A stretch of DNA of 64,000 bases from a virus (lineage: Duplodnaviria; Caudoviricetes): IMG/VR virus record IMGVR_UViG_3300028048_002144. One strand, given 5' to 3'. The translations under genes and the position numbers were made by a program. How positions within the stretch are numbered: position 1 is the first letter of the stretch; the number at the start of each line of letters is the position of its first letter. Below, one piece after another: positions 10,049 through 35,609 of this stretch. Below the pieces are notes generated by a model. It saw only the letters and a program-made list of their open reading frames with translations. It did no database searches and had not been told where the DNA came from.

Positions 10049-10260
10049 GTTATGTTTTAGATGCAAATCACTCGTAAATTGACGCACCCATTGGCTAAAA
10101 CCAATGGGATTCTTGCTTCACCGTGCGGTTGCACTATTTAGTATCTGCTTTTGTAGTACCTCATAGCGACTTACATACACTCCACAAGCGTGACTTTCCG
10201 AGCGTCCCTCGGTAGTTAATGTTTATAGGATTAATCTGCTCCGAAGCCTATTATTTCTAA
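10049..10260 (-). ncRNA. TnpB omegaRNA (reRNA) with flanking guide
   Basis: Structured region between the tnpB stop and the right end; guide is the flank at and below 10078; boundaries approximate. Confidence 0.6.
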
Positions 10261-11497
10261 TGCTTTGTCGAGAATATTATCTGCGGCATTGTTATCCCTA
10301 TCGTGATAAGCACCACAAACAGGACAAGTCCATTCTCGAACATTAAGATTCTTAACTTCTTTGTTTTGATAGCCACAATGATTACACAACTGACTTGATG
10401 CATAGAACCTCGGTACTTTGACAACTGTACTACCGTAGATTTTAGCTTTGTATTCAATCATAGTTACAAACTTTGACCAAGAAGCATCAGAGATAGACTT
10501 TGCTAATTTGTGATTACGAACCATTCCTTTTACATTAAGATCTTCGAGTGCTATCAGTTGATTTTCCTGAACAATCCTCGTTGACTCTTTCTGTAAGAAG
10601 TCATTCCTTTGGTTAGTAATATGTTCATGTATCCTTGCCACAACCTTACGTTGTTTCTGTATGTTGGAACATTCGGATAGCGGTCTATCATATATCGGAT
10701 GCCTATAACCTTTAATGATTTTGTAGCCTACGATATGACTTTCTATCATTTTGGAAAGTTTATGTTGCGCTTTAGCGAGTTTCTTCTGTGATTTTGTTAA
10801 GTACTTGTTGTTAGGGCATTTGTAACCGTTGGTATCAGAATAGAAATCTTTGATACCAAGATCAATGCCTACCATGTAACCGTTGTTGGTTACATCAGAT
10901 GTGGGCACATCTACATTCAACACACAGAAGTATTTATCACTTGGCGTTTGCTCTATGGTAGCGTTGTTTATTTTTGCAGAAGATAAGTCCATAGAAACCT
11001 TTGCCTTGACGTAGCCAAGTTTTGGCAACTTAATATGTTTGCCATCTAAAGTTACACAGATATTGTTGTTTACATTCTGTGTGCGGTAGGTTTTAAAGGT
11101 TTCCTTTTTAGACTTAAAGTGAGGGTAGCCTGCTAAATGTTTAAAGAAGTTTTTATATGCTCTATCCAAATCCTTTAGGGCTTGTTGCAAAGATATAGCG
11201 TCTACATTTTTTAGGAAAGCAAAATTATCTTCTTTCTTTAGGTTGGTCAGCATAGCATTGGTTTCTTTGTAACCAATACCAACGGAAGTAGTTTCGTAGG
11301 TTTCTTTACGCAGAGCAAGACCTTTATTGTAAACCAATCTACAACAACCAAAAGTATTCGCTATTAAGTTTTGTTGTGTTTTATTAGGATATATCCTTAT
11401 ACGAACACCTTTTAGCATACTTATTACTCCTTGTAATCTATTTCTATAATAATGCGAGTTAGTAAGTGTAAAATAGTTTTTCGCCCATGAGTAATTT
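10079..11497 (-). mobile_element. TnpB-only IS200/IS605 (IS1341-like) element
   Basis: Right end: CCCATTGG..CCAATGGG hairpin then TCAA. Left end inferred after TTAT at 11498-11501 (less certain). Confidence 0.75.
10231..11418 (-). CDS. tnpB: RNA-guided endonuclease TnpB
   Basis: HTH_OrfB N-terminus; RuvC GIDLG, EDL, DRDNNAA; CNHCG/CPVCG zinc finger. Confidence 0.95.
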
Positions 11498-22682: not shown

Positions 22683-24032
22683 ATTGCTCCGACTTTTATA
22701 AGTCGGAGCTTCTTGCTTCAACCATTACTGCATTCCTAACAAGTTACCTTGTCGGCTCGTCTTACACAATGTCCACAAGCGTATAAGTTCGGGCTATTCC
22801 ATCCCTACTATAATATTTAGTTCTAATCTACTTCAGCCAGTAGTCGTAATCCTTCGTTTAGGATATTGATAGCTGCGTTTTGATCACGATCCATCGTAAG
22901 ACCACAATCGCATACCATTTTACGGATGGTTAAGTCTCTCATTTCTGGATGTTTTGTTCCACAACAATGACAAATTTGTGATGACGGGAACCACTTATCT
23001 ACTTTTACAAGATATTTGTTTCTTTCTGATAACTTATATTCAAGCATCGACAGAAACATACCATAACCGTTATCCAGAGTAGCTTTACCGTTCCCAAATC
23101 CTTTATTAGACATAGCTTGCATGTTTAAGGATTCCACACATACAACATCATACCGATTGGCTATCTCAGTAGATATCTTATGCAGATTATCCAGACGCTG
23201 ATTAGCAATATGTCTATGGATTTTGTTTACTTTACGGAGTTGTTTTATATAATTTTTGGACTTTACCTCGTGTTTTTTAGATCCTTGCATGCGGGATAGC
23301 CTACGCTGTGCTTTGGCAAGTTTATCATGACTCTCACGATAATATTTGTGATTAGTTCCTACGTTACCGTTGCTATCCACATATAAGCCATTAGAAGCGT
23401 AGTCTAATCCGATAGCATTGGTCTTATCTGCTACATAAAGATTTGTTATATTCGCAAACTCAAAAAGAATAGAAATATAATATTTGCCATCTGATTCTTG
23501 TGATACGGTAGCGGATTTAATAATCCAATCGCTATCAGGAATACGATGGATAACTGCTTTTACCTTACCAATCTTAGGAAGCTTGATATATTTATTCTCT
23601 ATGATAGCAACAGTGCCTTTTTGATTATTAGTAGTATAGGACTTTCGGCTATGTTTTGCAGACTTGAATTTAGGGAATCCGTTTTTCTTTTTGCGGGATT
23701 TACTAAATGCATTGCGAAATGCTTCCTGTAAATCCATTTGCTTATTAGCAAGAGCTAGACTATCCACTTCTTTGAGATAAGGATAATCTTTTTTGTATTT
23801 AGCAGGTGTAACAGTAGGGAACTTGCCAGTAGCCTTGTAACCTTCAATTTTATCGGAAAGCATAAGATTCCAGACCTTACGACAACAGCCAAAGGTTTTA
23901 GCAAACATAACAGATTGTTCAGTTGTCGGATATATTCTGTACTTAATTGCTCTATTCATTAACTACCTCATGCGATTCATTTTATCGCCTATACTGTGCT
24001 TATTGGTGAGGAAATCTCGTCCACGGTGACTC
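22679..24032 (-). mobile_element. TnpB-only IS200/IS605 element inserted after TTAT
   Basis: Right end: GCTCCGACTT..AAGTCGGAGC hairpin then TTCAC. Removing 22679-24032 gives a TAA stop in frame with the plus-strand ORF. Confidence 0.75.
22823..23959 (-). CDS. tnpB: RNA-guided endonuclease TnpB
   Basis: HTH_OrfB; RuvC GLDY, VES, DRDQNAA; zinc finger. Confidence 0.95.
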   Translation of the reverse strand: MNRAIKYRIYPTTEQSVMFAKTFGCCRKVWNLMLSDKIEGYKATGKFPTVTPAKYKKDYPYLKEVDSLALANKQMDLQEAFRNAFSKSRKKKNGFPKFKSAKHSRKSYTTNNQKGTVAIIENKYIKLPKIGKVKAVIHRIPDSDWIIKSATVSQESDGKYYISILFEFANITNLYVADKTNAIGLDYASNGLYVDSNGNVGTNHKYYRESHDKLAKAQRRLSRMQGSKKHEVKSKNYIKQLRKVNKIHRHIANQRLDNLHKISTEIANRYDVVCVESLNMQAMSNKGFGNGKATLDNGYGMFLSMLEYKLSERNKYLVKVDKWFPSSQICHCCGTKHPEMRDLTIRKMVCDCGLTMDRDQNAAINILNEGLRLLAEVD

Positions 24033-25482
24033 ATAATTCTAATTTGATTTCTTTTGCTTCAGCATTCTTTTCATAGATTTGTTTATTAACTAATGTCTGT
24101 GTTTGAGACAATAAAAATCTTACACCTAACTTATTTTTGAATGCCTTTTTAGCAATTTCTTTCTTTAAATCATCAGACATATATATTGATATATTATATT
24201 TGTCTGACATCTTTTTCTCTGGAGAGATTCGTTTATCACATAAAATCTTATAAAAATCCTCTTCTTTTAGTTCGTTTAATTCTGTAATAGATGTAATTCG
24301 TCCTGCTATTTCTGGGATAATCCCAAACTTGATAATATCGTCAATGCTTATCTCTTTATGTTCTGATGCATTGTTTTCTGAGCCAAATCCAATTGTATGT
24401 GGTTTATCTGTTTTTGCTTTATATAACATCTCAAAAGCACCTAAAAATACAAAAGAGATATTACTTGTATTAATAATTACCTTGCTATATTTATCAAAAT
24501 TAACAGTAACGTTAGTGCCTTCTATCATAGATAAGAATTCACCTTGTAATGTTCTATGTAACTGTTCTCCACCAGATGTTATTTTAGGCGAACACATTTT
24601 ATCAAATTCATCAAATACGATAATACTATGTTCTACGTCCTCTACACTCATTCCAGAAGCTAACATTTCTTCTAAAACAGAATATGATTTCTTATTGCCG
24701 GTAAATCCATCCGCAGTAATAGATGATACGTCATATATATAAATATTATTATTAAGCTTCTGTAATGTTCTCCATATTTCGGTTTTGCCAGATCCAGATG
24801 GCCCGATAAAAAGTGCATTTTCTTTAATATCTCGATTTCTTTCCCATAGAATCATAGCAGCTTGTTTCTTTGCTTCTTCCTGGGAAAATACAAAGTTATC
24901 TAAAAACTGCTTAATATCTTGTGGTTGTAATTTATCTTTGATAACATCTTTTAGATCTAAGCATAGACTAGGATCTATTTCACTTTTAATTTTATCCCAT
25001 TTTTTAGGCAAATATGTACTTAATACATTTTCATAATCTATTTCTGGGAGTTCTGGGGCATCATCACCATATAGGTTATCTAAATCTTCTATAGATTCCA
25101 TACTCCTAAAATCAGCTAAAGATAGATTATCAATGTCTACACCAGAGAATGTTTTAGATACTCCAAAAATATCTTCTTCTGTAACAATATTTGCGCCTTT
25201 TATAGTCAAAGCAACATCTATATTCCCCTCTATTTCTTTTTCACATAAGAATCCTTTATCTACAAGAGAATCAATAATCTCTTTAGAATAATCTTTTTCA
25301 TAATCATATGTTTGCTCTAACATATTTAACATATCATCCAAATTGATAAATAATACTGGAACATAATTAGGATCCATTTCTGCGTTAATTGTGATTTCTG
25401 CCCAGTATCGAGAAAGCATGATACAATATAGGCGCAGCATTCTTTTTTCGTTGTCTGTTAGTTTCTCTTTTATATTATCCAT
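24031..25482 (-). CDS. ClpX-like AAA+ ATPase with divergent N-terminus
   Basis: QEEAKK, GPSGSGKTE, IIVFDEFDK, QGEFLSMIEG, FGIIPEIAGR, LGVR. Confidence 0.85.
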   Translation of the reverse strand: MDNIKEKLTDNEKRMLRLYCIMLSRYWAEITINAEMDPNYVPVLFINLDDMLNMLEQTYDYEKDYSKEIIDSLVDKGFLCEKEIEGNIDVALTIKGANIVTEEDIFGVSKTFSGVDIDNLSLADFRSMESIEDLDNLYGDDAPELPEIDYENVLSTYLPKKWDKIKSEIDPSLCLDLKDVIKDKLQPQDIKQFLDNFVFSQEEAKKQAAMILWERNRDIKENALFIGPSGSGKTEIWRTLQKLNNNIYIYDVSSITADGFTGNKKSYSVLEEMLASGMSVEDVEHSIIVFDEFDKMCSPKITSGGEQLHRTLQGEFLSMIEGTNVTVNFDKYSKVIINTSNISFVFLGAFEMLYKAKTDKPHTIGFGSENNASEHKEISIDDIIKFGIIPEIAGRITSITELNELKEEDFYKILCDKRISPEKKMSDKYNISIYMSDDLKKEIAKKAFKNKLGVRFLLSQTQTLVNKQIYEKNAEAKEIKLEL

Positions 25483-25584
25483 AAAAACCTCTTTTTATTT
25501 TTAATATGACTTGATATCCTAGGTTTTCTCTGTTTTTAGCGCAAAAATAAAACCAGAGATTTCTCTCTGGTTTTATAATTAACA

Positions 25585-27321
25585 TTAATCCCTTGAATAC
25601 TTGTCTACAGCTCCTATTGTTTTAGCTTCTGCTGATACTTTTATATCCAATAGATATGCTTTGTTCGTCTTATCATCTATTACATGTACTTCATAGCCAT
25701 TTTCATCTTCGAATTCCTTTAATTTTGCATATGTTTCTGGCCACTCTTTAGAGTATAAAGAGTCAACATGGAATAGCAAATGAGATGACTTCTTTTTTAA
25801 CGGTTCAGCATTTTGAGCAAAAGCTACATATGTTGTAGTTGCAACTTCATCACTATTATCATTATCATTCTGATCTTCTTTAATCAGAACGTTTAATCGA
25901 ATAGCATTGTTTTTCTTTAGCAAGATCTCATTTTTATTAATGAATTTCTCAAAACATAATACTCTTATAGAATCTGTTTTATCTTCCAAATCAAACATAA
26001 CCATTGATTTTCCGGTTTTAGTCTTTTTATACTCTAAATTTGTGATAATACCAGATATATATTCAGTATTTAGTTCTACATTCTCAATAGGCTTATCAAC
26101 TACGTTATAGTATTCAATCGGATGATTAGTAATAAAAGCACCAATAAGTTCCTTTTCCTTCATCAATGCTTCGTAATCATCTTCTTTTGAACTCTCTAAA
26201 TGATATATTTCTACATCATTCATTTCTGCTAATAATGCGTTAACACTATTTTCAGCATTCTGGATTTTTTTCTGAATAGAGTCTACTGTAGGAATTTTAT
26301 TGTTTGTAATAATATTACTAATAGCGATATTATTTTCGGTTAATATCTCTTTAAATTCATTTATATTATTACCTTTATATGATTCCACTAAAGGTTTTGT
26401 ATTTTTTAGCGCTACCAATTTTTTCTTTTTATCTTTCATAGTTTTTCGTAGTGCTAATAACTCTTTAACTGGAGTAAACTCCTCTTCACTAGCATCATAA
26501 TCCAGATCTATGTTCGAATATCCCAGACTTCTAAAAGCCCCAATATCTATTAAGTTTTTAATAGTTGCATCTTCAATAGAAGTACATCTATTAATAAAAT
26601 CCTTAAAGCTTCTAAATGGACCGTCTTTTTTTCTGGTTAATAGAATATGTTTAACATCATCAGTTTTTAGTCCCTTAATCATATTAAAACCTAGAATTAT
26701 AGTAGGCGTTTCTCTTTCTCCTACTACAATACATTTAGCATTAGATTTATTGATATCTGGTGTAGAAACTGACACTTTAAAGTCTTTTGCATCTTCTATG
26801 ATACCGTTTATTTTTTCTAGCTTATCAGTATGATCAAGAATTGATGCAAAATATTCTCCTGGATAATAATATTTGAGTGCTGCTGTTTTGAATGAAGTTA
26901 GTGCATAACAAGCCGCATGAGATTTATTAAAGGCATATTTTGCGAATTTGAGCATTTTTTCGAATAGATCTTCTGCTACTCTTTTGCTTTCCTCTGGAGT
27001 ATCACAGATTTTTCTATCTATGCAGCCTTTAATAAAAATTTCTCTTTCAGCTAAAATCTCATCTTCATGCTTTTTAGACATGGCTCGTCTAACTATATCA
27101 GCTTTGCCAAGTGTATAATTCGCAAGTTCACAGAAAATCTGCATTACCTGTTCCTGGTATACAATTACAGAATATGTTTCGCCCAAAATAGGCTTTAATA
27201 ATTCTGTATCATACTTAACATTAGCATTTTTCTTATTCTTAATATAGTTAGGGATTTCGTCTATAGGCCCTGGTCTATACAAAGCATTCATAGCTATCAA
27301 GTCTTCAAATTTTAGACTCAT
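25585..27321 (-). CDS. dnaE: DNA polymerase III alpha, C-terminal fragment (fingers, HhH, OB)
   Basis: FEDLIAMNALYRPGP, VYQEQVMQ, YAFNKSHAACY, LKYYYP, PDINKS, EKELIG..ITNHP. Confidence 0.95.
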   Translation of the reverse strand: MSLKFEDLIAMNALYRPGPIDEIPNYIKNKKNANVKYDTELLKPILGETYSVIVYQEQVMQIFCELANYTLGKADIVRRAMSKKHEDEILAEREIFIKGCIDRKICDTPEESKRVAEDLFEKMLKFAKYAFNKSHAACYALTSFKTAALKYYYPGEYFASILDHTDKLEKINGIIEDAKDFKVSVSTPDINKSNAKCIVVGERETPTIILGFNMIKGLKTDDVKHILLTRKKDGPFRSFKDFINRCTSIEDATIKNLIDIGAFRSLGYSNIDLDYDASEEEFTPVKELLALRKTMKDKKKKLVALKNTKPLVESYKGNNINEFKEILTENNIAISNIITNNKIPTVDSIQKKIQNAENSVNALLAEMNDVEIYHLESSKEDDYEALMKEKELIGAFITNHPIEYYNVVDKPIENVELNTEYISGIITNLEYKKTKTGKSMVMFDLEDKTDSIRVLCFEKFINKNEILLKKNNAIRLNVLIKEDQNDNDNSDEVATTTYVAFAQNAEPLKKKSSHLLFHVDSLYSKEWPETYAKLKEFEDENGYEVHVIDDKTNKAYLLDIKVSAEAKTIGAVDKYSRD

Positions 27322-27424
27322 TTTTTAATTCCTCCTTTTTATCATTAAAAATCTACTTATAATATGAAAGATTAATAAGTCAATTTATCAAAAAAGCCCT
27401 GGGAATAATCCCAAGGCTTTTACA

Positions 27425-29512
27425 TTACTTGCTGTTTAAATAGAATGCTTTGAAGATATCAATCAATTTATCAGCTAGTTTGTTTGGTTCACATGCAATA
27501 AATTGCTTTCCATACATTTTACTATATGTATCCAAAATCTCTTTATTATAACTGTCATTCATATCCAAATACTCTGAGATATAAATAGGTACAACTATAA
27601 TACCATTTTCCCTAGCAATTCTAACAGCTTCCTGTACATCATATGCTGGATTAATTTCGGTAGAATTATAATCCGTAGGAAGACCATCTGAAATAATTAC
27701 AAATATCTTCTTTTCTTCTGGACGATTAAGGAGTTCTTTTGTGGCAATTCTGATTGAATATCCATCTTTATTTCCACATTCAGCATCTAATGCCTTTAAG
27801 AAATTGAATGAATTAGAATTACTCTGTACTTCATCAAACTCTTTTACACATCTATGAATAACGTTATTATCACTGCATGTAAATGATGTGATTTTAAGAG
27901 GCATTAATTCTTTAAATGCTTCTTCAATTAAAGTCGATGCTCTACATGCTAACTCTCTTTTACTTCCATACATAGAACCTGAATTATCCTGCAAGATATA
28001 TGCGACTCCGTCAAATTCTTTTTCGTCAATTTCACGTTCAAAGAATTCTGTTTCACCTAGAATCATCTTGTACAGATCATCTTCACAAACGTCTCCTCGT
28101 GTTAAATCTGTTTCGATTGACTTCTGGTTACGAAGAATCTGCATTAATTCCTGTTTAACTTTCTGAGCATTTGCCTGGATATCTGTAGGCGTTGGATAAT
28201 TCAACTTATATTCTCTAGGCAATTCTTTAAAAGTAACATCTGGATCATACAGTTTTCCTTCTGATTTTTCTAATGATGGTGGAGTTGGATTCATTTTAAC
28301 AGGCTTTTCCATAACGCTTTTTTGAGAATCAATTTTACTCTTTTCCTTTTCAGAAACTGCATCTAAGCTTTCCTGGGCTTCTTTTACATCCTCTTCTGAT
28401 GGTGTACTTTTAGCTGAATCTTTAAGCTTTTCTTTAACATCTTTGCCTTTAGCTTCATCTCCCTTATCTTTTTCTTCTTTTTTATCGCTTGATGAATCAA
28501 AGATATTAAATCCATTCATAGATATATCTTCGCCAGTTTCATCATCGCTCTCTTCATTCGGAGAAAAGTTTTTAGGAAGATTATCGTATCCTTTTGCATC
28601 TGTTGAAAACATTTTAGCAATAGCACCAAGCATATTTTCAACTTCTTCAGCATCTAGTTTTACAGCTTCTAAGAATAGATCGTAGAGCTTGTTTTCGATT
28701 TCTAAAGATTTCTTCATTACTGTCATTGTTGTTTTGGCAGTAACTGATGTACCGATATCCATAAGCATTGAATCTAAAAGAGTATTAACTTCACCATCTT
28801 CTTTTACTGTATCTGCATAGTTTTTCATATACAGGCCCGATGTTGATAATGAAAGAATCTGATTTAGAATAATCTGGAGTTTTTCAATAGCGGTTAAGTC
28901 TTCCTCTTTATGTGGAAGCTTAAATTCTGCGCTATTGTAACTCTTGTTTCGGCTTACTAACAACTGGTTTTTAAAGTTATTAGATATCTCCATCTGTTTT
29001 CTTTCAATACGTCCATCTTCCATAGCATTACAGATAAAATGGTTAAATTCTTTGATTAAAGGAAGATTGATATAAATCTTTTCCTTTTCTCGCAAATACT
29101 TCAAGAATTTATCGTAATCTTCGTCTTTCTTAAAGCATCTAGTTTTACCTTCATACTTCGTTGACATATAGACAAAAAACGATTTTAAACCGGTTTTAAG
29201 TCCCCACATCCATGATCTAGCTGATGTATGTAAGATATGCCCAATCTCATGTCCAATAAGATACTTAATAACCAATACAAATTCTTTTTCATCTTTGCAT
29301 TCAACTATTAGTGGATTGCTTAATCCAATGTTAATGCACGGTGTGTTTTCATCATTATCAGTATAAACATCCTCAGAAAAATCCATTGTTAAACAAATTT
29401 CTTTGTCGATGTTATTAAGTATCCCCCATACTTTGACTTCACTATCAAATATGTTGTAATACTTATACCATTGCTTCTCAATAGCTTCAATATCTACAAT
29501 TTTAACGTTCAT
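27425..29512 (-). CDS. VWA-domain protein with N-terminal HExxH domain (CobT/NorD-like MoxR partner)
   Basis: HEIGH, NAMEDGRIE; MIDAS DNSGSM and ISDGLP. Confidence 0.85.
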   Translation of the reverse strand: MNVKIVDIEAIEKQWYKYYNIFDSEVKVWGILNNIDKEICLTMDFSEDVYTDNDENTPCINIGLSNPLIVECKDEKEFVLVIKYLIGHEIGHILHTSARSWMWGLKTGLKSFFVYMSTKYEGKTRCFKKDEDYDKFLKYLREKEKIYINLPLIKEFNHFICNAMEDGRIERKQMEISNNFKNQLLVSRNKSYNSAEFKLPHKEEDLTAIEKLQIILNQILSLSTSGLYMKNYADTVKEDGEVNTLLDSMLMDIGTSVTAKTTMTVMKKSLEIENKLYDLFLEAVKLDAEEVENMLGAIAKMFSTDAKGYDNLPKNFSPNEESDDETGEDISMNGFNIFDSSSDKKEEKDKGDEAKGKDVKEKLKDSAKSTPSEEDVKEAQESLDAVSEKEKSKIDSQKSVMEKPVKMNPTPPSLEKSEGKLYDPDVTFKELPREYKLNYPTPTDIQANAQKVKQELMQILRNQKSIETDLTRGDVCEDDLYKMILGETEFFEREIDEKEFDGVAYILQDNSGSMYGSKRELACRASTLIEEAFKELMPLKITSFTCSDNNVIHRCVKEFDEVQSNSNSFNFLKALDAECGNKDGYSIRIATKELLNRPEEKKIFVIISDGLPTDYNSTEINPAYDVQEAVRIARENGIIVVPIYISEYLDMNDSYNKEILDTYSKMYGKQFIACEPNKLADKLIDIFKAFYLNSK

Positions 29513-29614
29513 ATTTTCTCCTTTCTTATCTTAAAATTTCATCTTAAATATGAATGATTTTTTGTATAAAAAAAGATAGATATAGCATAAACTATATCTA
29601 TCTTTCTGTTTCAA

Positions 29615-31156
29615 TTACATATCACCGATGATATTGTTAATCAAATTGAGAATAACATCATTTCCAGCATCTGATGTTGCATTAACTACACATGTAGTAA
29701 TAGCCTTTGATAGCTTTGTCATAGGCATTTCCAGACCTTTTGTATTTACCATTACAGCAGCTGTTTCATTAAGTGCTCTTACGAAACCTCGAATATTAAG
29801 AGTATCATCTGAAATATTTCCCTTCTGGTTTGCGTCCTGGAACTTAATGTACAATTCATTACACTTCTCAAAATACTTGCGTGGCAGTCTAGTTTTAGTG
29901 TATTCCTCACATGATTCCATTAAGATATTTAAAATATCCTTATGATATGGGAATTTTACAACATCAAATCTTGACATTGTAGCTGCATCAAGTCTATTTG
30001 TAGATGTGTAATTGCTACCTACATTCTGTGTTCCGATAATAAAGAAATCCTTATTAATTTCTACTGTTCCAGACTTTGCATAGAAAGTTTTACTACCATC
30101 TGCAAAAGGATGCAGGGCTGCTACAGTATTGCTATTACCGTGGTTGATCTCATCTGCGAAATATGGGATTCCTACAGGAGCAGCCTGGAGAAGATTTCCT
30201 CTTTCTGTTCCTAATCTAGGAGCCATTGAACAGTCTTTAGCGTAATTATATGCAATTAGCAGTTCTTTTTCCTCTGGAGTAAGATCTGACATTTTTTTCT
30301 CATTAAGCTTTAAGCTCAATTCGATTTCAATAGCCTTATTTGCTTTTTCAGAGTCAAATGCATCAAGTGCTGATGGTACAGTAGTCTTTGTTTCAAACAA
30401 GTCATTAGCAGTCATTTTGTTATTCAGGATATCTTTTCTATATGGAAGATTTAATATCCAACAAATAGTCTCTGCCATTACACCTTTTCCTGTAGACTTA
30501 TCACCTTCAAAGATAAATGAAGATCCAGCTAATGCTTTACCGAGAACCATAGTGACAATACTCTCTTCTTTATAGAAGTTGATATTATCGTATGTATCTA
30601 CGAACTTAGCCTTTGGCTTAGAACCCTTTTCTTCTCTATTATGAGAAATCCAGTATTCAATTACTGACATAATGAGTTCCTTTGGAGCTGGGATTCTTAG
30701 ATACTTCTTTGATTCCAGATATTCTACAATCTCCATAGCATTGTCTTCATCAATGCAACCCTGGGCTACAGCTTCTTTTACTTTAGATACAATATCACTA
30801 GAAGACTCTACTTTAGTAGTAGTTGTCTTTCCTTTAGAAGCAACCTTTTTATCCTTCACCTTTACAGTAAAAGATACCAGCTGACCACCGTTTTCTTCAT
30901 ATGTATCTTTTGTAATTGAAAAATCAAATGTTAAAGCCATTTTGAGTGTATTCAGATCAACTGTTTCACCAGAATCATTATCAACTACACTCTCTACAAA
31001 TCCAACAGTAGTATCCTTATAATCCATAAGAATTCTAGGCTCTACAAGCTTGAATTCAAAAGCTGCATTCTTTACGCTATTAGCTGTAAAGTCTTTTAAA
31101 AGAACATCTCTCTGTGGATACATAAATGGTGTTTTAATTGTAATGTTATAATTCAT
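29615..31156 (-). CDS. MoxR/CbbQ/NorQ-type AAA+ ATPase
   Basis: GDKSTGKG, FADEIN, IGTQN..Y..TNRLDAATMSRF. Confidence 0.85.
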   Translation of the reverse strand: MNYNITIKTPFMYPQRDVLLKDFTANSVKNAAFEFKLVEPRILMDYKDTTVGFVESVVDNDSGETVDLNTLKMALTFDFSITKDTYEENGGQLVSFTVKVKDKKVASKGKTTTTKVESSSDIVSKVKEAVAQGCIDEDNAMEIVEYLESKKYLRIPAPKELIMSVIEYWISHNREEKGSKPKAKFVDTYDNINFYKEESIVTMVLGKALAGSSFIFEGDKSTGKGVMAETICWILNLPYRKDILNNKMTANDLFETKTTVPSALDAFDSEKANKAIEIELSLKLNEKKMSDLTPEEKELLIAYNYAKDCSMAPRLGTERGNLLQAAPVGIPYFADEINHGNSNTVAALHPFADGSKTFYAKSGTVEINKDFFIIGTQNVGSNYTSTNRLDAATMSRFDVVKFPYHKDILNILMESCEEYTKTRLPRKYFEKCNELYIKFQDANQKGNISDDTLNIRGFVRALNETAAVMVNTKGLEMPMTKLSKAITTCVVNATSDAGNDVILNLINNIIGDM

Positions 31157-31248
31157 TATAATCTCCTTTCAAACTTAAAAATTCTAATACTAATATGAAT
31201 GATTTTTATAATAAAAAAATAAGAGTAGGAAATCCTACTCTTATTTTC

Positions 31249-32331
31249 TTAACTAAGTTCTTTTAAGTATTTTCTCATTCCAGCAGACTCAAACTGAAAT
31301 ACGTTCTTTGTTCTTCCTTTAGCATAGATATTTTCGTATACCTCTTCAGCGGAATGGCCAAATCTATCCGTGCCTTCAACTGGGAAATCTTTCTCAATAT
31401 CAATATCTTCACCATAACGTTCGCTAATCATTCTGATAGCATCCGTCATTATTGATAAGTTATTAAGTCCTAGAAAATCCATTTTTAAAAGGCCATTTTC
31501 TTCAGATTCAATCTTATCTGTTTCTACTACTCTTTTATTAGAAACTATTGTTGTAGACGTATAATTAGTAATATCGTTATCATCATAGATAATAATACCA
31601 GCTGCATGCTGTCCATACTGTCTTAGCATTCCCTCAATATTATATGCAATGTCCAGGATCTTTATTGCATTTTCGTTAGCAGAAAAATCAGATTTCAAAC
31701 TTTCAATCAAAGTAGTTTTATTATCATCAATCTCTGAATCAAAAGCCCAGAAATTATCGGTAATCTTTTTACAGATTTCATCAGCTAACGCATAATATGC
31801 ACCAGGAGATCCAACAAGTTCACCATAATATCGAGCAGCATCTTTTACGGAAGACTTTGGCTTTAAATATGATTTAGTGATAATTCCTGCTACTGCATCG
31901 TTTCCATATTTATTCTTAACATAAAGAATAACTTTGTTTCTTACATTTGGAGAAAAATCACAGTCCAAATCGGGCATAGATACTCTTTCTACGTTCAAAA
32001 ATCTTTCGAACAATAGATTATATTTGAGTGGATCAAGTCCAGTAATTCCAAGTAAATATACTACTAACGAACCAGCTCCAGATCCTCTTCCTACTCCAGT
32101 ACCCTGTCCTATTTTGAAATTATGCTCTTTTACATATTTCTTTGCTTCTTCGATAGTTAATGGTACTTCGTCTAATAGTTCATCTGGAACTACTCCGATA
32201 ACTCTACCATATTCAATGAAATCTTTTACGATTAAGAAATAATCGTTATATCCCATTTCATTGATAACGCTTAATTCGTATTCTACTCGTTCCTTGTGGG
32301 CTTTTGTCCAACCAGATAATCCTGGGTATTT
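31249..32331 (-). CDS. dnaE: DNA polymerase III alpha, palm/thumb fragment (continues the PHP ORF in the -1 frame)
   Basis: ERVEYELSVINEMGYNDYFLIV, GRGSGAGS, LLFERFLN.ER.SMPDLDCDF, HAAG, LLKMDFLGL, FQFES. Confidence 0.9.
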   Translation of the reverse strand, partial: KYPGLSGWTKAHKERVEYELSVINEMGYNDYFLIVKDFIEYGRVIGVVPDELLDEVPLTIEEAKKYVKEHNFKIGQGTGVGRGSGAGSLVVYLLGITGLDPLKYNLLFERFLNVERVSMPDLDCDFSPNVRNKVILYVKNKYGNDAVAGIITKSYLKPKSSVKDAARYYGELVGSPGAYYALADEICKKITDNFWAFDSEIDDNKTTLIESLKSDFSANENAIKILDIAYNIEGMLRQYGQHAAGIIIYDDNDITNYTSTTIVSNKRVVETDKIESEENGLLKMDFLGLNNLSIMTDAIRMISERYGEDIDIEKDFPVEGTDRFGHSAEEVYENIYAKGRTKNVFQFESAGMRKYLKELS

Positions 32332-33761
32332 TTCTTTATACCTTCTATAACCGCCTTTTTAAGAAGCATTTTGCTGTCTTTTGTTTTATCGAATACTGGA
32401 TAATGTCCCTCTCTCTCTGGAGTGAATTCGATTTTAATCTTATTTAGATTAAGCATAGCTTCTTTTACAGTTTCTGCATCAAAGATCTGCAATAATGCAT
32501 ATGCTAGTTCATTTGGTGACTTGATATAAAGTTCCTTATCCCACGGTTCGTCCGAAATGCGCTCAAATCGGAGATATCTGGCTACAGAGCGTTTAGTAAT
32601 AGATGAAACGGAATTATCCGGCAAATGGCTATCATTTGCGGCAATTAGAGGTATCTTATTATCTTTAGCAATCTTTACTAATGCTGTATAAAGAGTTTCC
32701 TCTTCTACCATACCATGATTCTGAATTTCAATGAAGAAATTATCTTTGCCTACTCTATCTCTTACTAATGCAATAATTCTAGTGGCAGCTTCAAAAGCTT
32801 CTTTTTCTGAAAACAAAATATGCTGTTTTTCAATACTGATTCTTATTGATTCATTTTTGCTGTATTTCTTTTCTAGTTCATCAAGTTCAGCTTTAAATTT
32901 TTTCTTATTCAGATTAGCCTCTTTGATAGCATCTTTGTTTTCTCCAAGTCTTTTATCCTTAGATACTTTTAAGTCCTCTTTTGAGGCTTTTAATAGCTTT
33001 ATTTCATTTTCGTCTTTTTTAGCTTTTGCATTTCTTAAATCGTTTGAAATGTCTGTATTCAATTTACAATACTCTTCTTTAAGAGTATTCTCTTTTTCTT
33101 TTAAATTTTCTATCAAAACATCCATCTGTTTAATAGAGTCATTTAAAGAACTTACCTTCTCACTAATTGAAGGATCATAATTATCCTTATTTGCATTATA
33201 GACTTTGTTAAGGCTACAATATCTTCTTAACTGAAGTGATGGCAAACCTTGAATACAAGCTGTTGTTATTACAACGGAATCGTTGAACTCTGTTGCTAAC
33301 AAATCTTCGAACTTAATTGCCGGTTTCCCTGCATGCATTGCTTCGCTTTTAGACACCAGTTTATCTATGATTCTTTTTCCCTGCTTATTTTTAGCAAGCA
33401 TTATCATATGTGCTACTGCTGTCTGCGCATCATACGGTGGACAAGTGACATATGCTTCTGTACCGTAAATAATATGCACGTTTTCTTTCTTCGCAGCTTT
33501 TAAGCACTGGAACATTGACGTAAATGAACCATGCTCTGTTACTGTGAAATATTCATAGCCTTTTTCTTTAGCTTTACGCACATATTTACTCGGTTCATCT
33601 ACAGCATCATTTACAGAACCACCTGGGTGATTATGCAAAGATACTTTTACCTCAGAATTAAAATCAATCCCTGTTTTTGTTTTTACAATCTCATTGATCT
33701 TTCCTTCTGGAAGATTAAAATATTTCGCTTTGTCTTCTGTATAATTTTTATACTCTAACAT
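32283..33761 (-). CDS. dnaE: DNA polymerase III alpha, PHP domain with coiled-coil insert
   Basis: LHNH, TEHG, GTEAY, HMIMLAKN, EIQNH, ANDSH. Confidence 0.9.
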   Translation of the reverse strand: MLEYKNYTEDKAKYFNLPEGKINEIVKTKTGIDFNSEVKVSLHNHPGGSVNDAVDEPSKYVRKAKEKGYEYFTVTEHGSFTSMFQCLKAAKKENVHIIYGTEAYVTCPPYDAQTAVAHMIMLAKNKQGKRIIDKLVSKSEAMHAGKPAIKFEDLLATEFNDSVVITTACIQGLPSLQLRRYCSLNKVYNANKDNYDPSISEKVSSLNDSIKQMDVLIENLKEKENTLKEEYCKLNTDISNDLRNAKAKKDENEIKLLKASKEDLKVSKDKRLGENKDAIKEANLNKKKFKAELDELEKKYSKNESIRISIEKQHILFSEKEAFEAATRIIALVRDRVGKDNFFIEIQNHGMVEEETLYTALVKIAKDNKIPLIAANDSHLPDNSVSSITKRSVARYLRFERISDEPWDKELYIKSPNELAYALLQIFDAETVKEAMLNLNKIKIEFTPEREGHYPVFDKTKDSKMLLKKAVIEGIKKNTQDYLVGQKPTRNE

Positions 33762-33852
33762 GAAGCTCTCCTTTCTTTTCTTAAAAATCTAATATTAATA
33801 TGAATGATTTTTATAAAAGAAAACCTACTGTGGTTAACAGTAGGTATCTAAA

Positions 33853-34065
33853 TTATTTTTTATTGTTTCTTCTTGGATCAAAAATTCCCGTTCTTGAAAA
33901 CGTTGCATTCTTCATATCATCTGGTTCAACTCCACCAATTTTGCTATACGAAGAATTCTTTTTTCGTACTTCTTGAGATAGCATTGGTATATCTGGATTT
34001 TTAACCGGATATTCCATGTTATTTGTGTTAAATTGAGATGCTCCTCCAAAAATATTATCAAACAT
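33853..34065 (-). CDS. hypothetical protein
   Basis: Short ORF with RBS before a terminator. Confidence 0.5.
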   Translation of the reverse strand: MFDNIFGGASQFNTNNMEYPVKNPDIPMLSQEVRKKNSSYSKIGGVEPDDMKNATFSRTGIFDPRRNNKK

Positions 34066-34085
34066 TTTCCTGTTCCTTTCTATTA

Positions 34086-35501
34086 CTATTTCACATTAAT
34101 AGCTGTTATTACTGAACATCCGTATTTCTGTTCTTTTTTAGCAGTCCATATATCAATTTCTGACGGTGTTTTTAAGTTATCTATTTCTTTTAATTCGTTC
34201 TGGATACCGTTTCTATCCGCAGATATAATAGCTACAAAAACAGCTTCTAACATATCTCTGGATATATTTTTTGCACGTTCTAAACGTCTACAATTCTCTT
34301 TATTCTTAAAGCAATCCATTTCTTGTGCTTTTACAAATATCTGTTCAATTCTTTTCTCATCTGTTTTACTGATATTATTGGTTTTATCTTTTTTAATATC
34401 TTCCAGGATAAAATTTTTAGCATCTTCGTTATTCAAGATAATAATTTTATTCTTTCCAGATTTTTTGGCTTTATACAAAATATCATCTGCTCTTTTAATA
34501 AAAGTATGAATATCTTCATTGGCTGCATATTTTGTAACACCACCAGAAAAAGTGATTCTATCCTGTACGTCTGGATAAGAACTATTTCTAAAGATACTAT
34601 GAATTCGGTCTAATACTGTAACTATTTCATTTTCTTTTTTATTCAAGAAAATAATACCGAACTCTTCTCCACCATATCTTGTTGGAATAATCTCTTCCGA
34701 AGATTCATTATTCAAGATCTGACCTAAATGCTTTAGAACTTCATTTCCCTTTTCATGTCCGTATTCATCATTTACTTTCTTAAAATCATCAATATCTAGT
34801 ATTGCGAAATAAATCTCTGTTTTATTTTTTATTTCTTCTGTTATTTTCATTTCCATAAAAGCATGATTGTATACATTTGTCAGTTCATCTTGAATTGATT
34901 TTTTGTACCATATAGTCGCTTTTTGTTCTTTCGCTATTATGAACTTTTCTTTTTCTTTTTCATGTTTGATCATAATGTTAGTCAATACATATCCTAATAA
35001 GAATATTGCAAAAGTAATTAACACATTATGATTAAAATTTTTAGGTAATGGAGTTATAGATATTTCTGCAGTTACTATCAATATTGTTAAGATGCTTAAT
35101 ATGATATGGAAAATGTTTTTCGTTATTACTAGATTTCCATATATAATTGATACGAATAATGGTACTACAAATAACAAATACAATGCCGAAAACATATAAT
35201 GTAGATAAACTATATTTGTAATAATTACAATTAGCTCTATTAAAGGTAAGGCATTCTTTATTTCGTTTGTTATTGTCTTTTGTGCTATTAGCATTCTTGT
35301 AAATATATGCATCGTTAAATTTATTGATGTAGGGAATATAACTCCACCCCATACATTTCTTTTGACATCCAAATATTTTGCGAATACTACAAAAAATAGA
35401 ATTTCAAATATACATTGCAAGACGATGTTGATGAAATTCATTTTAAGTAGGTCGTTTCGCCAATTAGTAAGGATATCTTCATAGTTTTGTTTTGTTTTCA
35501 T
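34086..35501 (-). CDS. membrane-bound diguanylate cyclase (GGDEF)
   Basis: About 5 TM segments; DELT.VYN, DIDDFK.VND.YGH..G, RYGGEEF, RADDILYKAK..GKN. Confidence 0.9.
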   Translation of the reverse strand: MKTKQNYEDILTNWRNDLLKMNFINIVLQCIFEILFFVVFAKYLDVKRNVWGGVIFPTSINLTMHIFTRMLIAQKTITNEIKNALPLIELIVIITNIVYLHYMFSALYLLFVVPLFVSIIYGNLVITKNIFHIILSILTILIVTAEISITPLPKNFNHNVLITFAIFLLGYVLTNIMIKHEKEKEKFIIAKEQKATIWYKKSIQDELTNVYNHAFMEMKITEEIKNKTEIYFAILDIDDFKKVNDEYGHEKGNEVLKHLGQILNNESSEEIIPTRYGGEEFGIIFLNKKENEIVTVLDRIHSIFRNSSYPDVQDRITFSGGVTKYAANEDIHTFIKRADDILYKAKKSGKNKIIILNNEDAKNFILEDIKKDKTNNISKTDEKRIEQIFVKAQEMDCFKNKENCRRLERAKNISRDMLEAVFVAIISADRNGIQNELKEIDNLKTPSEIDIWTAKKEQKYGCSVITAINVK

Positions 35502-35609
35502 AAAAATAATCCTATTAAAAATAATCAACGTATCAATATTAATATGACTGATTGAGAAAACAAAAAAGCCTTACTAGCATATCGCTAGTAAGACTTTGTA
35601 AAAGGAGGG

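Follow-up and report, generated by a model that had tools for sequence, protein, structure and literature searches.

The DNA analyzed here, a stretch of 64,000 nucleotides (nt) referred to below as the window, belongs to the IMG/VR record IMGVR_UViG_3300028048_002144, a large element from gut bacteria that is plasmid- or phage-like in character and has a total length of 205,278 bp. One relative's contig carries the label of a Lachnospira pectinoschiza metagenome-assembled genome. On the minus strand, from position 33761 down to 25585, Pfam assignments identified five open reading frames (ORFs) in the order PHP, palm, AAA_5, CobT_C/VWA, and DnaE C half, with the parts of a DnaE-type (C-family) DNA polymerase lying on both sides of the AAA_5 and CobT_C/VWA genes (Table 1). 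The palm ORF terminates in ...FQFESAGMRKYLKELS and a stop at 31249 (final codons ...VFQFESAGMRKYLKELS-TAA), and the C half begins with MSLKFEDLIAMNALYRPGP at 27321. Between them, the N and C halves carry the full DnaE-type C-family set of a PHP domain, a palm with three catalytic aspartates (PDxDxD and DFLGL), fingers, HhH, and OB. The finger motifs RPGP, YQEQ, RRAMSKK, and FNKSH are all present in the C half, and its HhH region matches HHH_6 (E value of 8e-22). The AlphaFold2 (AF2) model of the C half has a predicted local distance difference test (pLDDT) score of 86, with a coil at residues 1 to 4 followed by a helix at residues 5 to 14, and a beta-barrel is predicted at residues 421 to 507, the position of the OB fold. 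Between HhH and OB lies a long helical insert (residues 284 to 369) that contains a clade-conserved KKVPTxDSIxKRI motif, and beyond the OB fold there is an additional small alpha/beta domain (residues 513 to 575). The C half showed no identifiable clamp-binding motif.

The genes on either side of the break carry separate expression signals. The KTCATATT motif occurs in 46 copies in the window versus 18 expected, and minus-strand copies at 33797, 31192, 29547, 27361, and 25503 precede gene starts with a spacing of about 36 to 40 nt. Each of the three units upstream of the C half ends in a hairpin with a T-run, followed by TTCATATT and an AGGAG-type ribosome-binding site (RBS) for the next gene. 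The region comprises four transcription units, each with a terminator, a KTCATATT motif, and an RBS of its own. Two genes and three terminator/promoter sets thus separate the DnaE halves in the window, and the polymerase is not encoded as a single polypeptide. A preliminary description of this DNA, made from the letters alone, had given the palm fragment its own terminator and the remainder its own promoter and AGGAGG site; all of these signals were located again, at the boundaries that it had assigned.

Table 1. Coordinates of the polymerase halves, the genes between them, and their putative signals in the window
Feature	Position	Strand	Basis
TTCATATT promoter-like motif, 36 nt upstream of N-half start	33797..33804	-	motif scan
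First ORF of DnaE N half, PHP domain, 492 amino acids	32283..33761	-	PF02811, E value of 1e-21; aligns to residues 39-496 of L009 N half
A5 run, one-base frame change in N half	32329..32333	-	tblastn with relatives' N halves
Second ORF of DnaE N half, palm, thumb, and first ~60 finger residues, 335 amino acids	31249..32256	-	DNA_pol3_alpha PF07733, E value of 6e-60; finger model 1-59
Hairpin and T-run terminator after N half, G+C-poor	about 31212..31246	-	sequence; only spurious hairpin-type Rfam matches
TTCATATT motif before AAA+ gene	31192..31199	-	sequence, motif scan
MoxR/CobS-like AAA_5 ATPase, 513 amino acids	29615..31156	-	Pfam; backbone gene of element family
Hairpin and T-run terminator after AAA+ gene	29568..29606	-	sequence
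TTCATATT motif before VWA gene	29547..29554	-	sequence, motif scan
CobT_C/VWA protein, 695 amino acids, HExxH (HEIGH) near N terminus	27425..29512	-	Pfam
Hairpin and T-run terminator after VWA gene	27389..27420	-	sequence
TTCATATT motif before DnaE C half	27361..27368	-	sequence, motif scan
AGGAGG RBS of DnaE C half	27331..27336	-	sequence
DnaE C half, 578 amino acids: remaining fingers, HhH, helical insert, OB fold, small C-terminal domain	25585..27321	-	Pfam, motifs, AF2

The break passes through a single domain and costs the polymerase no residue. One Pfam finger model of 166 positions is divided between the two proteins, with positions 1 to 59 in the palm ORF and 63 to 164 in the C half. 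Alignment with the solved structures (PDB) placed palm-ORF residue 334 at residue 623 of the Escherichia coli alpha subunit and C-half residue 5 at residue 628, while in the Taq enzyme palm-ORF residue 331 corresponds to residue 679 and C-half residue 4 to residue 686. An intact relative, P0122 (1403 amino acids), aligns to the window without a gap as residues 472 to 848 plus 849 to 1399, and this alignment revealed no stop or indel in 1,400 codons apart from a frame break within the N half that is taken up below. The proposal of the preliminary description that almost no residues had been lost can therefore be sharpened, as none are missing at the junction. In the AlphaFold models, the cut falls in a short loop of 3 to 5 residues within the fingers domain, between the helix that ends the N piece (residues 325 to 334) and the helix with which the C piece opens (residues 5 to 14).

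Neither an intein nor an intron was recognized at the break. At an E value of ≤0.01, no intein or Hint family matched either DnaE protein in Pfam, which returned polymerase domains only. Polymerase homology continues up to the break on both sides, reaching residue 334 of 335 in the palm ORF and beginning at residue 4 to 5 of the C half, and thus leaves no space for intein halves. A permissive E-value scan of positions 24000 to 35500 with Rfam found no group I or group II intron, only spurious hairpin matches below the gathering score. The earlier statement that no N- or C-half of an intein is present is borne out by these results. Covalent joining of the halves into a single working chain, whether through trans-splicing of RNA, a hidden intein-like clasp, or some other ligation, is accordingly very unlikely: in addition to the missing intron and the lack of space for an intein, the two halves have separate stop codons, terminators, promoter motifs, RBSs, and ATG starts, the start of the C half varies by 0 to 8 residues among relatives, and in some of these the halves are more than 10 kb apart. 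The observation that favors joining comes from the N-half-like sequences P0140, P0174, and P0220, which stop within conserved motifs (after RPGP or YQ) and then continue for a few unrelated residues; these look like readings into introns or other inserts and suggest that introns exist in some relatives.

The same cut was found across a clade of related elements. A search for C-half relatives among proteins of similar length recovered 26 further clusters (P0002 to P0027) that are 36 to 42% identical to the C half over about 98% of its length and share its domain set. The window C half and these 26 clusters begin 0 to 8 residues before IEDIIAMNALYRPGP, apart from extended forms: eight clusters (P0002, P0004, P0006, P0014, P0019, P0022, P0026, and P0029) carry an N-terminal extension of 34 to 56 residues before the conserved start. 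The window lacks this extension, which may serve as a docking peptide. The N halves of the relatives (831 to 893 amino acids in L009, L013, L017, and L018, together with P0121 and P0210) end 4 to 7 residues after GMxxxLKxL. The 27 split forms and the intact P0122 group as one clade in a C-region tree of 91 rows (Shimodaira-Hasegawa-like approximate likelihood ratio test, 95), and the window is the earliest branch of this clade. A tree in which the split rows are monophyletic without P0122 was slightly better and not rejected (approximately unbiased test, P value of 0.56), which makes one ancient fission tenable; the fission is old and was probably a single event at the base of the clade. A second set of apparent split C halves (P0057, P0067, P0070, and others) was treated as truncated calls and not counted as evidence, with near-identical long forms adjoining them in the tree. 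Another widespread DnaE form, P0035 (802 amino acids, 73 contigs), starts inside the palm just before PDxDxD and lacks PHP; it may represent a further split form or result from a miscalled start.

Residues expected to matter for catalysis are retained on both sides of the cut. In the N half, D96, D98, D100, and D260 (PDxDxD and DFLGL) are invariant across 28 sequences, and RPGP, QEQ, RR..SKK, and FNKSH are invariant in the C half across the clade. Pairwise identities of the N and C halves correlate with an r of 0.95 (21 pairs from seven loci), a value that shows co-inheritance of the halves and is not to be read as a probability, since the pairs are not independent. The comparison with related elements that the preliminary description had proposed thus found the 26 further C-half clusters and six N halves, five of them from sequenced loci, split at the same site, and neither misassembly nor decay, two of the outcomes that it had set against its own reading, with the cut conserved in the clade and the motifs invariant. 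That the split is an assembly or gene-calling artifact of this contig has next to no probability. The contig was assembled from a metagenome and probably contains one base error or more, but the same break with like signals recurs in NCBI, ENA, and Logan assemblies that are independent of it, and these loci refute the artifact.

The spacer between the halves differs in every relative, ranging from 93 nt to ten genes. The shortest, the 93-nt gap of L013, contains a terminator hairpin, GTCATATT, and an RBS. Four small genes separate the halves in L017; a 5'-3' exonuclease, DUF3232, and one further gene do so in L018; and ten genes intervene in L009, compared with the AAA_5/VWA pair in the window. 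In L011, L014, and L015, no N half was found within 3 to 10 kb of the C half. In the plasmid-like loci L011 (225-5112) and L015 (6639-11680), the C half lies directly behind ParA and a Rep3 initiator, and its vicinity contains no N half. Four loci also have a gene for an Rce1-like (CPBP) membrane protease directly after the C half (L009:11799-12710, L014:12282-13076, L015:11788-12696, and L018:11828-12736), a gene that is not in the window. The window AAA_5 protein, whose Walker A reads GDKSTGKG, matches the product of the gene immediately after an intact dnaE in L016 along its whole length, with 38% identity. Because this ortholog follows an intact dnaE, the AAA_5/VWA pair belongs to the backbone of the element family and is no mobile invader. 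For this reason, and because the spacers differ in every relative, we rejected the idea that an invading cassette had split the gene.

The window N half contains a second discontinuity. In relatives, the N half is a single in-frame ORF at the corresponding place, whereas here the PHP ORF (32283-33761) and the palm ORF (31249-32256) occupy different frames, and the 26 nt that separate them contain no promoter motif, terminator, or RBS. The preliminary description had spoken of two genes; this holds for the split at the fingers, while the division of the upstream half into two ORFs had been overlooked. The final ~17 residues of the PHP ORF are out of frame, and the homologous reading in the palm frame is open already from about 32349. 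When the relatives' single-ORF N halves were used as tblastn queries, the alignments stayed in frame -3 as far as 32337/32334 and continued in frame -2 at 32331, with contiguous query residues across the change (496 to 499) and none missing. Since the frame changes between 32337 and 32331 without loss of a residue, the break sits in the A5 run at 32329 to 32333. Adding one A to this run gives ...GIKKKYPGLSGWTKAHKERVEYELSVINEMGY, and the repaired reading ...EGIKKKYPGLSGWTKAHKERVEYELSVINEMGY matches KGINWRYPNGKGWDEEHQKRMEYELNII of L009. Programmed -1 frameshifting at the A-run was unsupported: the heptamer is not a canonical slippery one, the relatives are in frame, and no structure follows downstream (z = 0.07). 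For the same reasons, the one-base break most likely arose as an error during assembly or through a very recent mutation, and it lies outside the design of the split polymerase.

Were the frame break real, the polymerase gene of this element could be dead or dying, and replication would then fall to enzymes of the host or to other enzymes of the element. We regard this as unlikely. It is in keeping with the one-nucleotide lesion itself, with a palm ORF that has neither an RBS nor a promoter of its own, and with the lack of a fold that would support programmed frameshifting. However, the conserved residues on either side of the break are encoded without loss in both frames, all catalytic and finger motifs are intact, and the absence of any further stop or indel in 1,400 codons would make the lesion very recent at most; a homopolymer miscall accounts for the break equally well.

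Sister lineages show that DnaE has been cut elsewhere too. In L019 (2663-6983), a further site, independent of the first, is used: the N half ends about 30 residues further on, in ...RPGPMDAIPEYIENKKAQAG and a stop, after RPGPMDxIPxxIxxKK, and a 539-amino-acid C half follows after a 94-nt gap with a terminator, TTCATATT, and an RBS. L020 (3482-6124) has an N half resembling that of L019, with no C half within 6.5 kb. In L021 (1840-5816), a separate 393-amino-acid PHP protein ends in ...HYPKFTY-TAG, its stop overlapping an AGGAGG that is followed by the ATG of a 927-amino-acid palm-to-OB protein, a clean fission between PHP and palm. Together with the cut in the window, these loci indicate that sister lineages divide DnaE at three or more places. 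One possible extension, which we consider unlikely, is that the element family uses truly modular C-family replicases made of several subunits, which sister lineages have cut between PHP and palm, at the site seen in the window, and about 30 residues beyond it and have nonetheless kept. A separately promoted C subunit, often beside Rep3/ParA, might then be the regulated, limiting part that switches on the element's own replicase, for instance when the element passes between maintenance as a plasmid and run-away or lytic replication, and the AAA+/VWA pair might help to assemble the halves.

The halves could instead have separate roles, the N half as a PHP nuclease or phosphoesterase and the C half as a DNA- or clamp-binding factor beside Rep3/ParA. 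The stand-alone PHP protein of L021 and the position of the C half next to Rep3 and ParA in L011 and L015, far from any N half, would fit such a division of labor. We nevertheless judge it quite improbable: the active-site aspartates of the N half and the motifs of the C half that contact deoxynucleoside triphosphate and template are invariant across the clade, the divergences of the two halves are tightly correlated, and the cut through a single structural domain leaves neither piece with complete fingers.

Taken together, these results make it likely that the window encodes a natural, fissioned DnaE-type polymerase whose two proteins are held together noncovalently. The N subunit comprises PHP, palm, thumb, and the first two finger helices and contains the catalytic aspartates, and the C subunit comprises the remaining fingers, HhH, and the OB fold and contains the conserved basic and finger motifs. 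Each would be transcribed from its own KTCATATT promoter and translated separately, with an RBS and a terminator of its own. In solved Pol III alpha complexes (2HNH and 3E0D), the finger motifs contact the incoming nucleotide and the template. With the aspartates in the N subunit, these motifs in the C subunit, and the cut within one structural domain, neither half should polymerize alone. An active enzyme would arise by fragment complementation, in which the two chains co-fold into one fingers domain with no covalent link, and the reconstituted polymerase may serve as the replicase of the element. After the fission, the two genes would have drifted apart, with different genes coming to lie between them in different elements.

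Several observations weigh against this proposal. The frame break, if real, would truncate the N half in this element. In L011, L014, and L015, the flanks covered by the analysis contain no N half, and the presence of one in these elements is assumed. The Pfam match to OB scored 24.4 bits, under the curated cutoff of 27. Finally, the window covers only 64 kb of the 205-kb element, and a second polymerase may exist elsewhere on it.

The remainder of the window carries genes for RecJ, a ClpX-like ATPase, a DnaQ-like exonuclease, and a DNA methylase. A protein with a GGDEF diguanylate-cyclase domain is encoded at 34086 to 35528, immediately upstream of the DnaE N half, and two TnpB/IS605 OrfB genes (with a Cas12f1-like TNB domain) are located at 10231 to 11418 and 22823 to 23959 on the same strand as the backbone genes. 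A near-DNA search among phages gave no match, and a search of viral contigs returned only relatives of about 30% identity, which were not used further.

Textbooks present the bacterial replicase DnaE as a single chain, and the best-known case of its splitting in nature requires a split intein: in cyanobacteria, the two halves are rejoined by the Ssp/Npu DnaE split intein. As in cyanobacteria, dnaE here exists as two separately expressed genes that may be far apart, and the cut falls in the fingers region. The cyanobacterial site (...FAEY/CFNKSH) corresponds to Y129/A130 of the window C half, 129 residues downstream of the window break. The window polymerase is not cut there, as KYAFNKSH is uninterrupted at residues 128 to 135 of the C half, and its halves lack intein sequence, unlike the cyanobacterial proteins, which carry intein halves and have their exteins ligated (reviewed in PMC2677866 and PMC4031507).

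That a split replicase can be active without a covalent bond has a precedent in phage genes in pieces. The family-B polymerase gp43 of Aeromonas phages 25 and 44RR is split as 43A/43B, and the phage 25 halves copurify and polymerize; the split NrdA of phage Aeh1 is likewise active without splicing (PMC2988022). These enzymes and the window DnaE share the division of an essential replication enzyme into two separately translated pieces with all residues kept, and a variable spacer, which for gp43 and NrdA is an untranslated stretch or inserted genes. They differ in that gp43 is of family B and the window polymerase of family C, with a different fold, and that homing endonuclease genes are linked to the cut in gp43 and NrdA while the gap in the window is filled by backbone genes.

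Within family C, a DNA polymerase III alpha module that is both minimal and split has been described in group 2.2 jumbo phages (Iyer et al. 2021, PMC7824862). It too consists of a C-family catalytic module in two stand-alone proteins from distant genes that are predicted to reconstitute. PHP, HhH, and OB are absent from the group 2.2 module, which occurs alongside a family-B polymerase and has its cut between the NTP-binding and the Mg/template-binding subdomains (PMC7824862), whereas the window DnaE is full length, has both palm subdomains in its N half, and is cut in the fingers. The fractured genes of Dassa et al. (2009, PMC2677866), in which split-intein halves flank a free-standing homing endonuclease gene, are similar in being replication genes from phages and metagenomes that are broken in two with genes between the parts; in contrast, the gap in the window holds AAA_5 and CobT_C/VWA, with neither intein halves nor an endonuclease. 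A full-text literature search found no account of an intein-less split of a full-length DnaE, an absence that is in itself no proof.

In this locus and its relatives, a full-length DnaE has been maintained through evolution as two unlinked genes without a rejoining element. If the halves reconstitute, the cut would mark permissive split points in C-family polymerases, which would be useful for split-polymerase tools and for studies of finger closing, and would aid annotation, as such halves are now labeled "partial" or "OB-fold protein." The polymerase of this element family would then be a C-family addition to the few replication enzymes that are proven noncovalent "genes in pieces."

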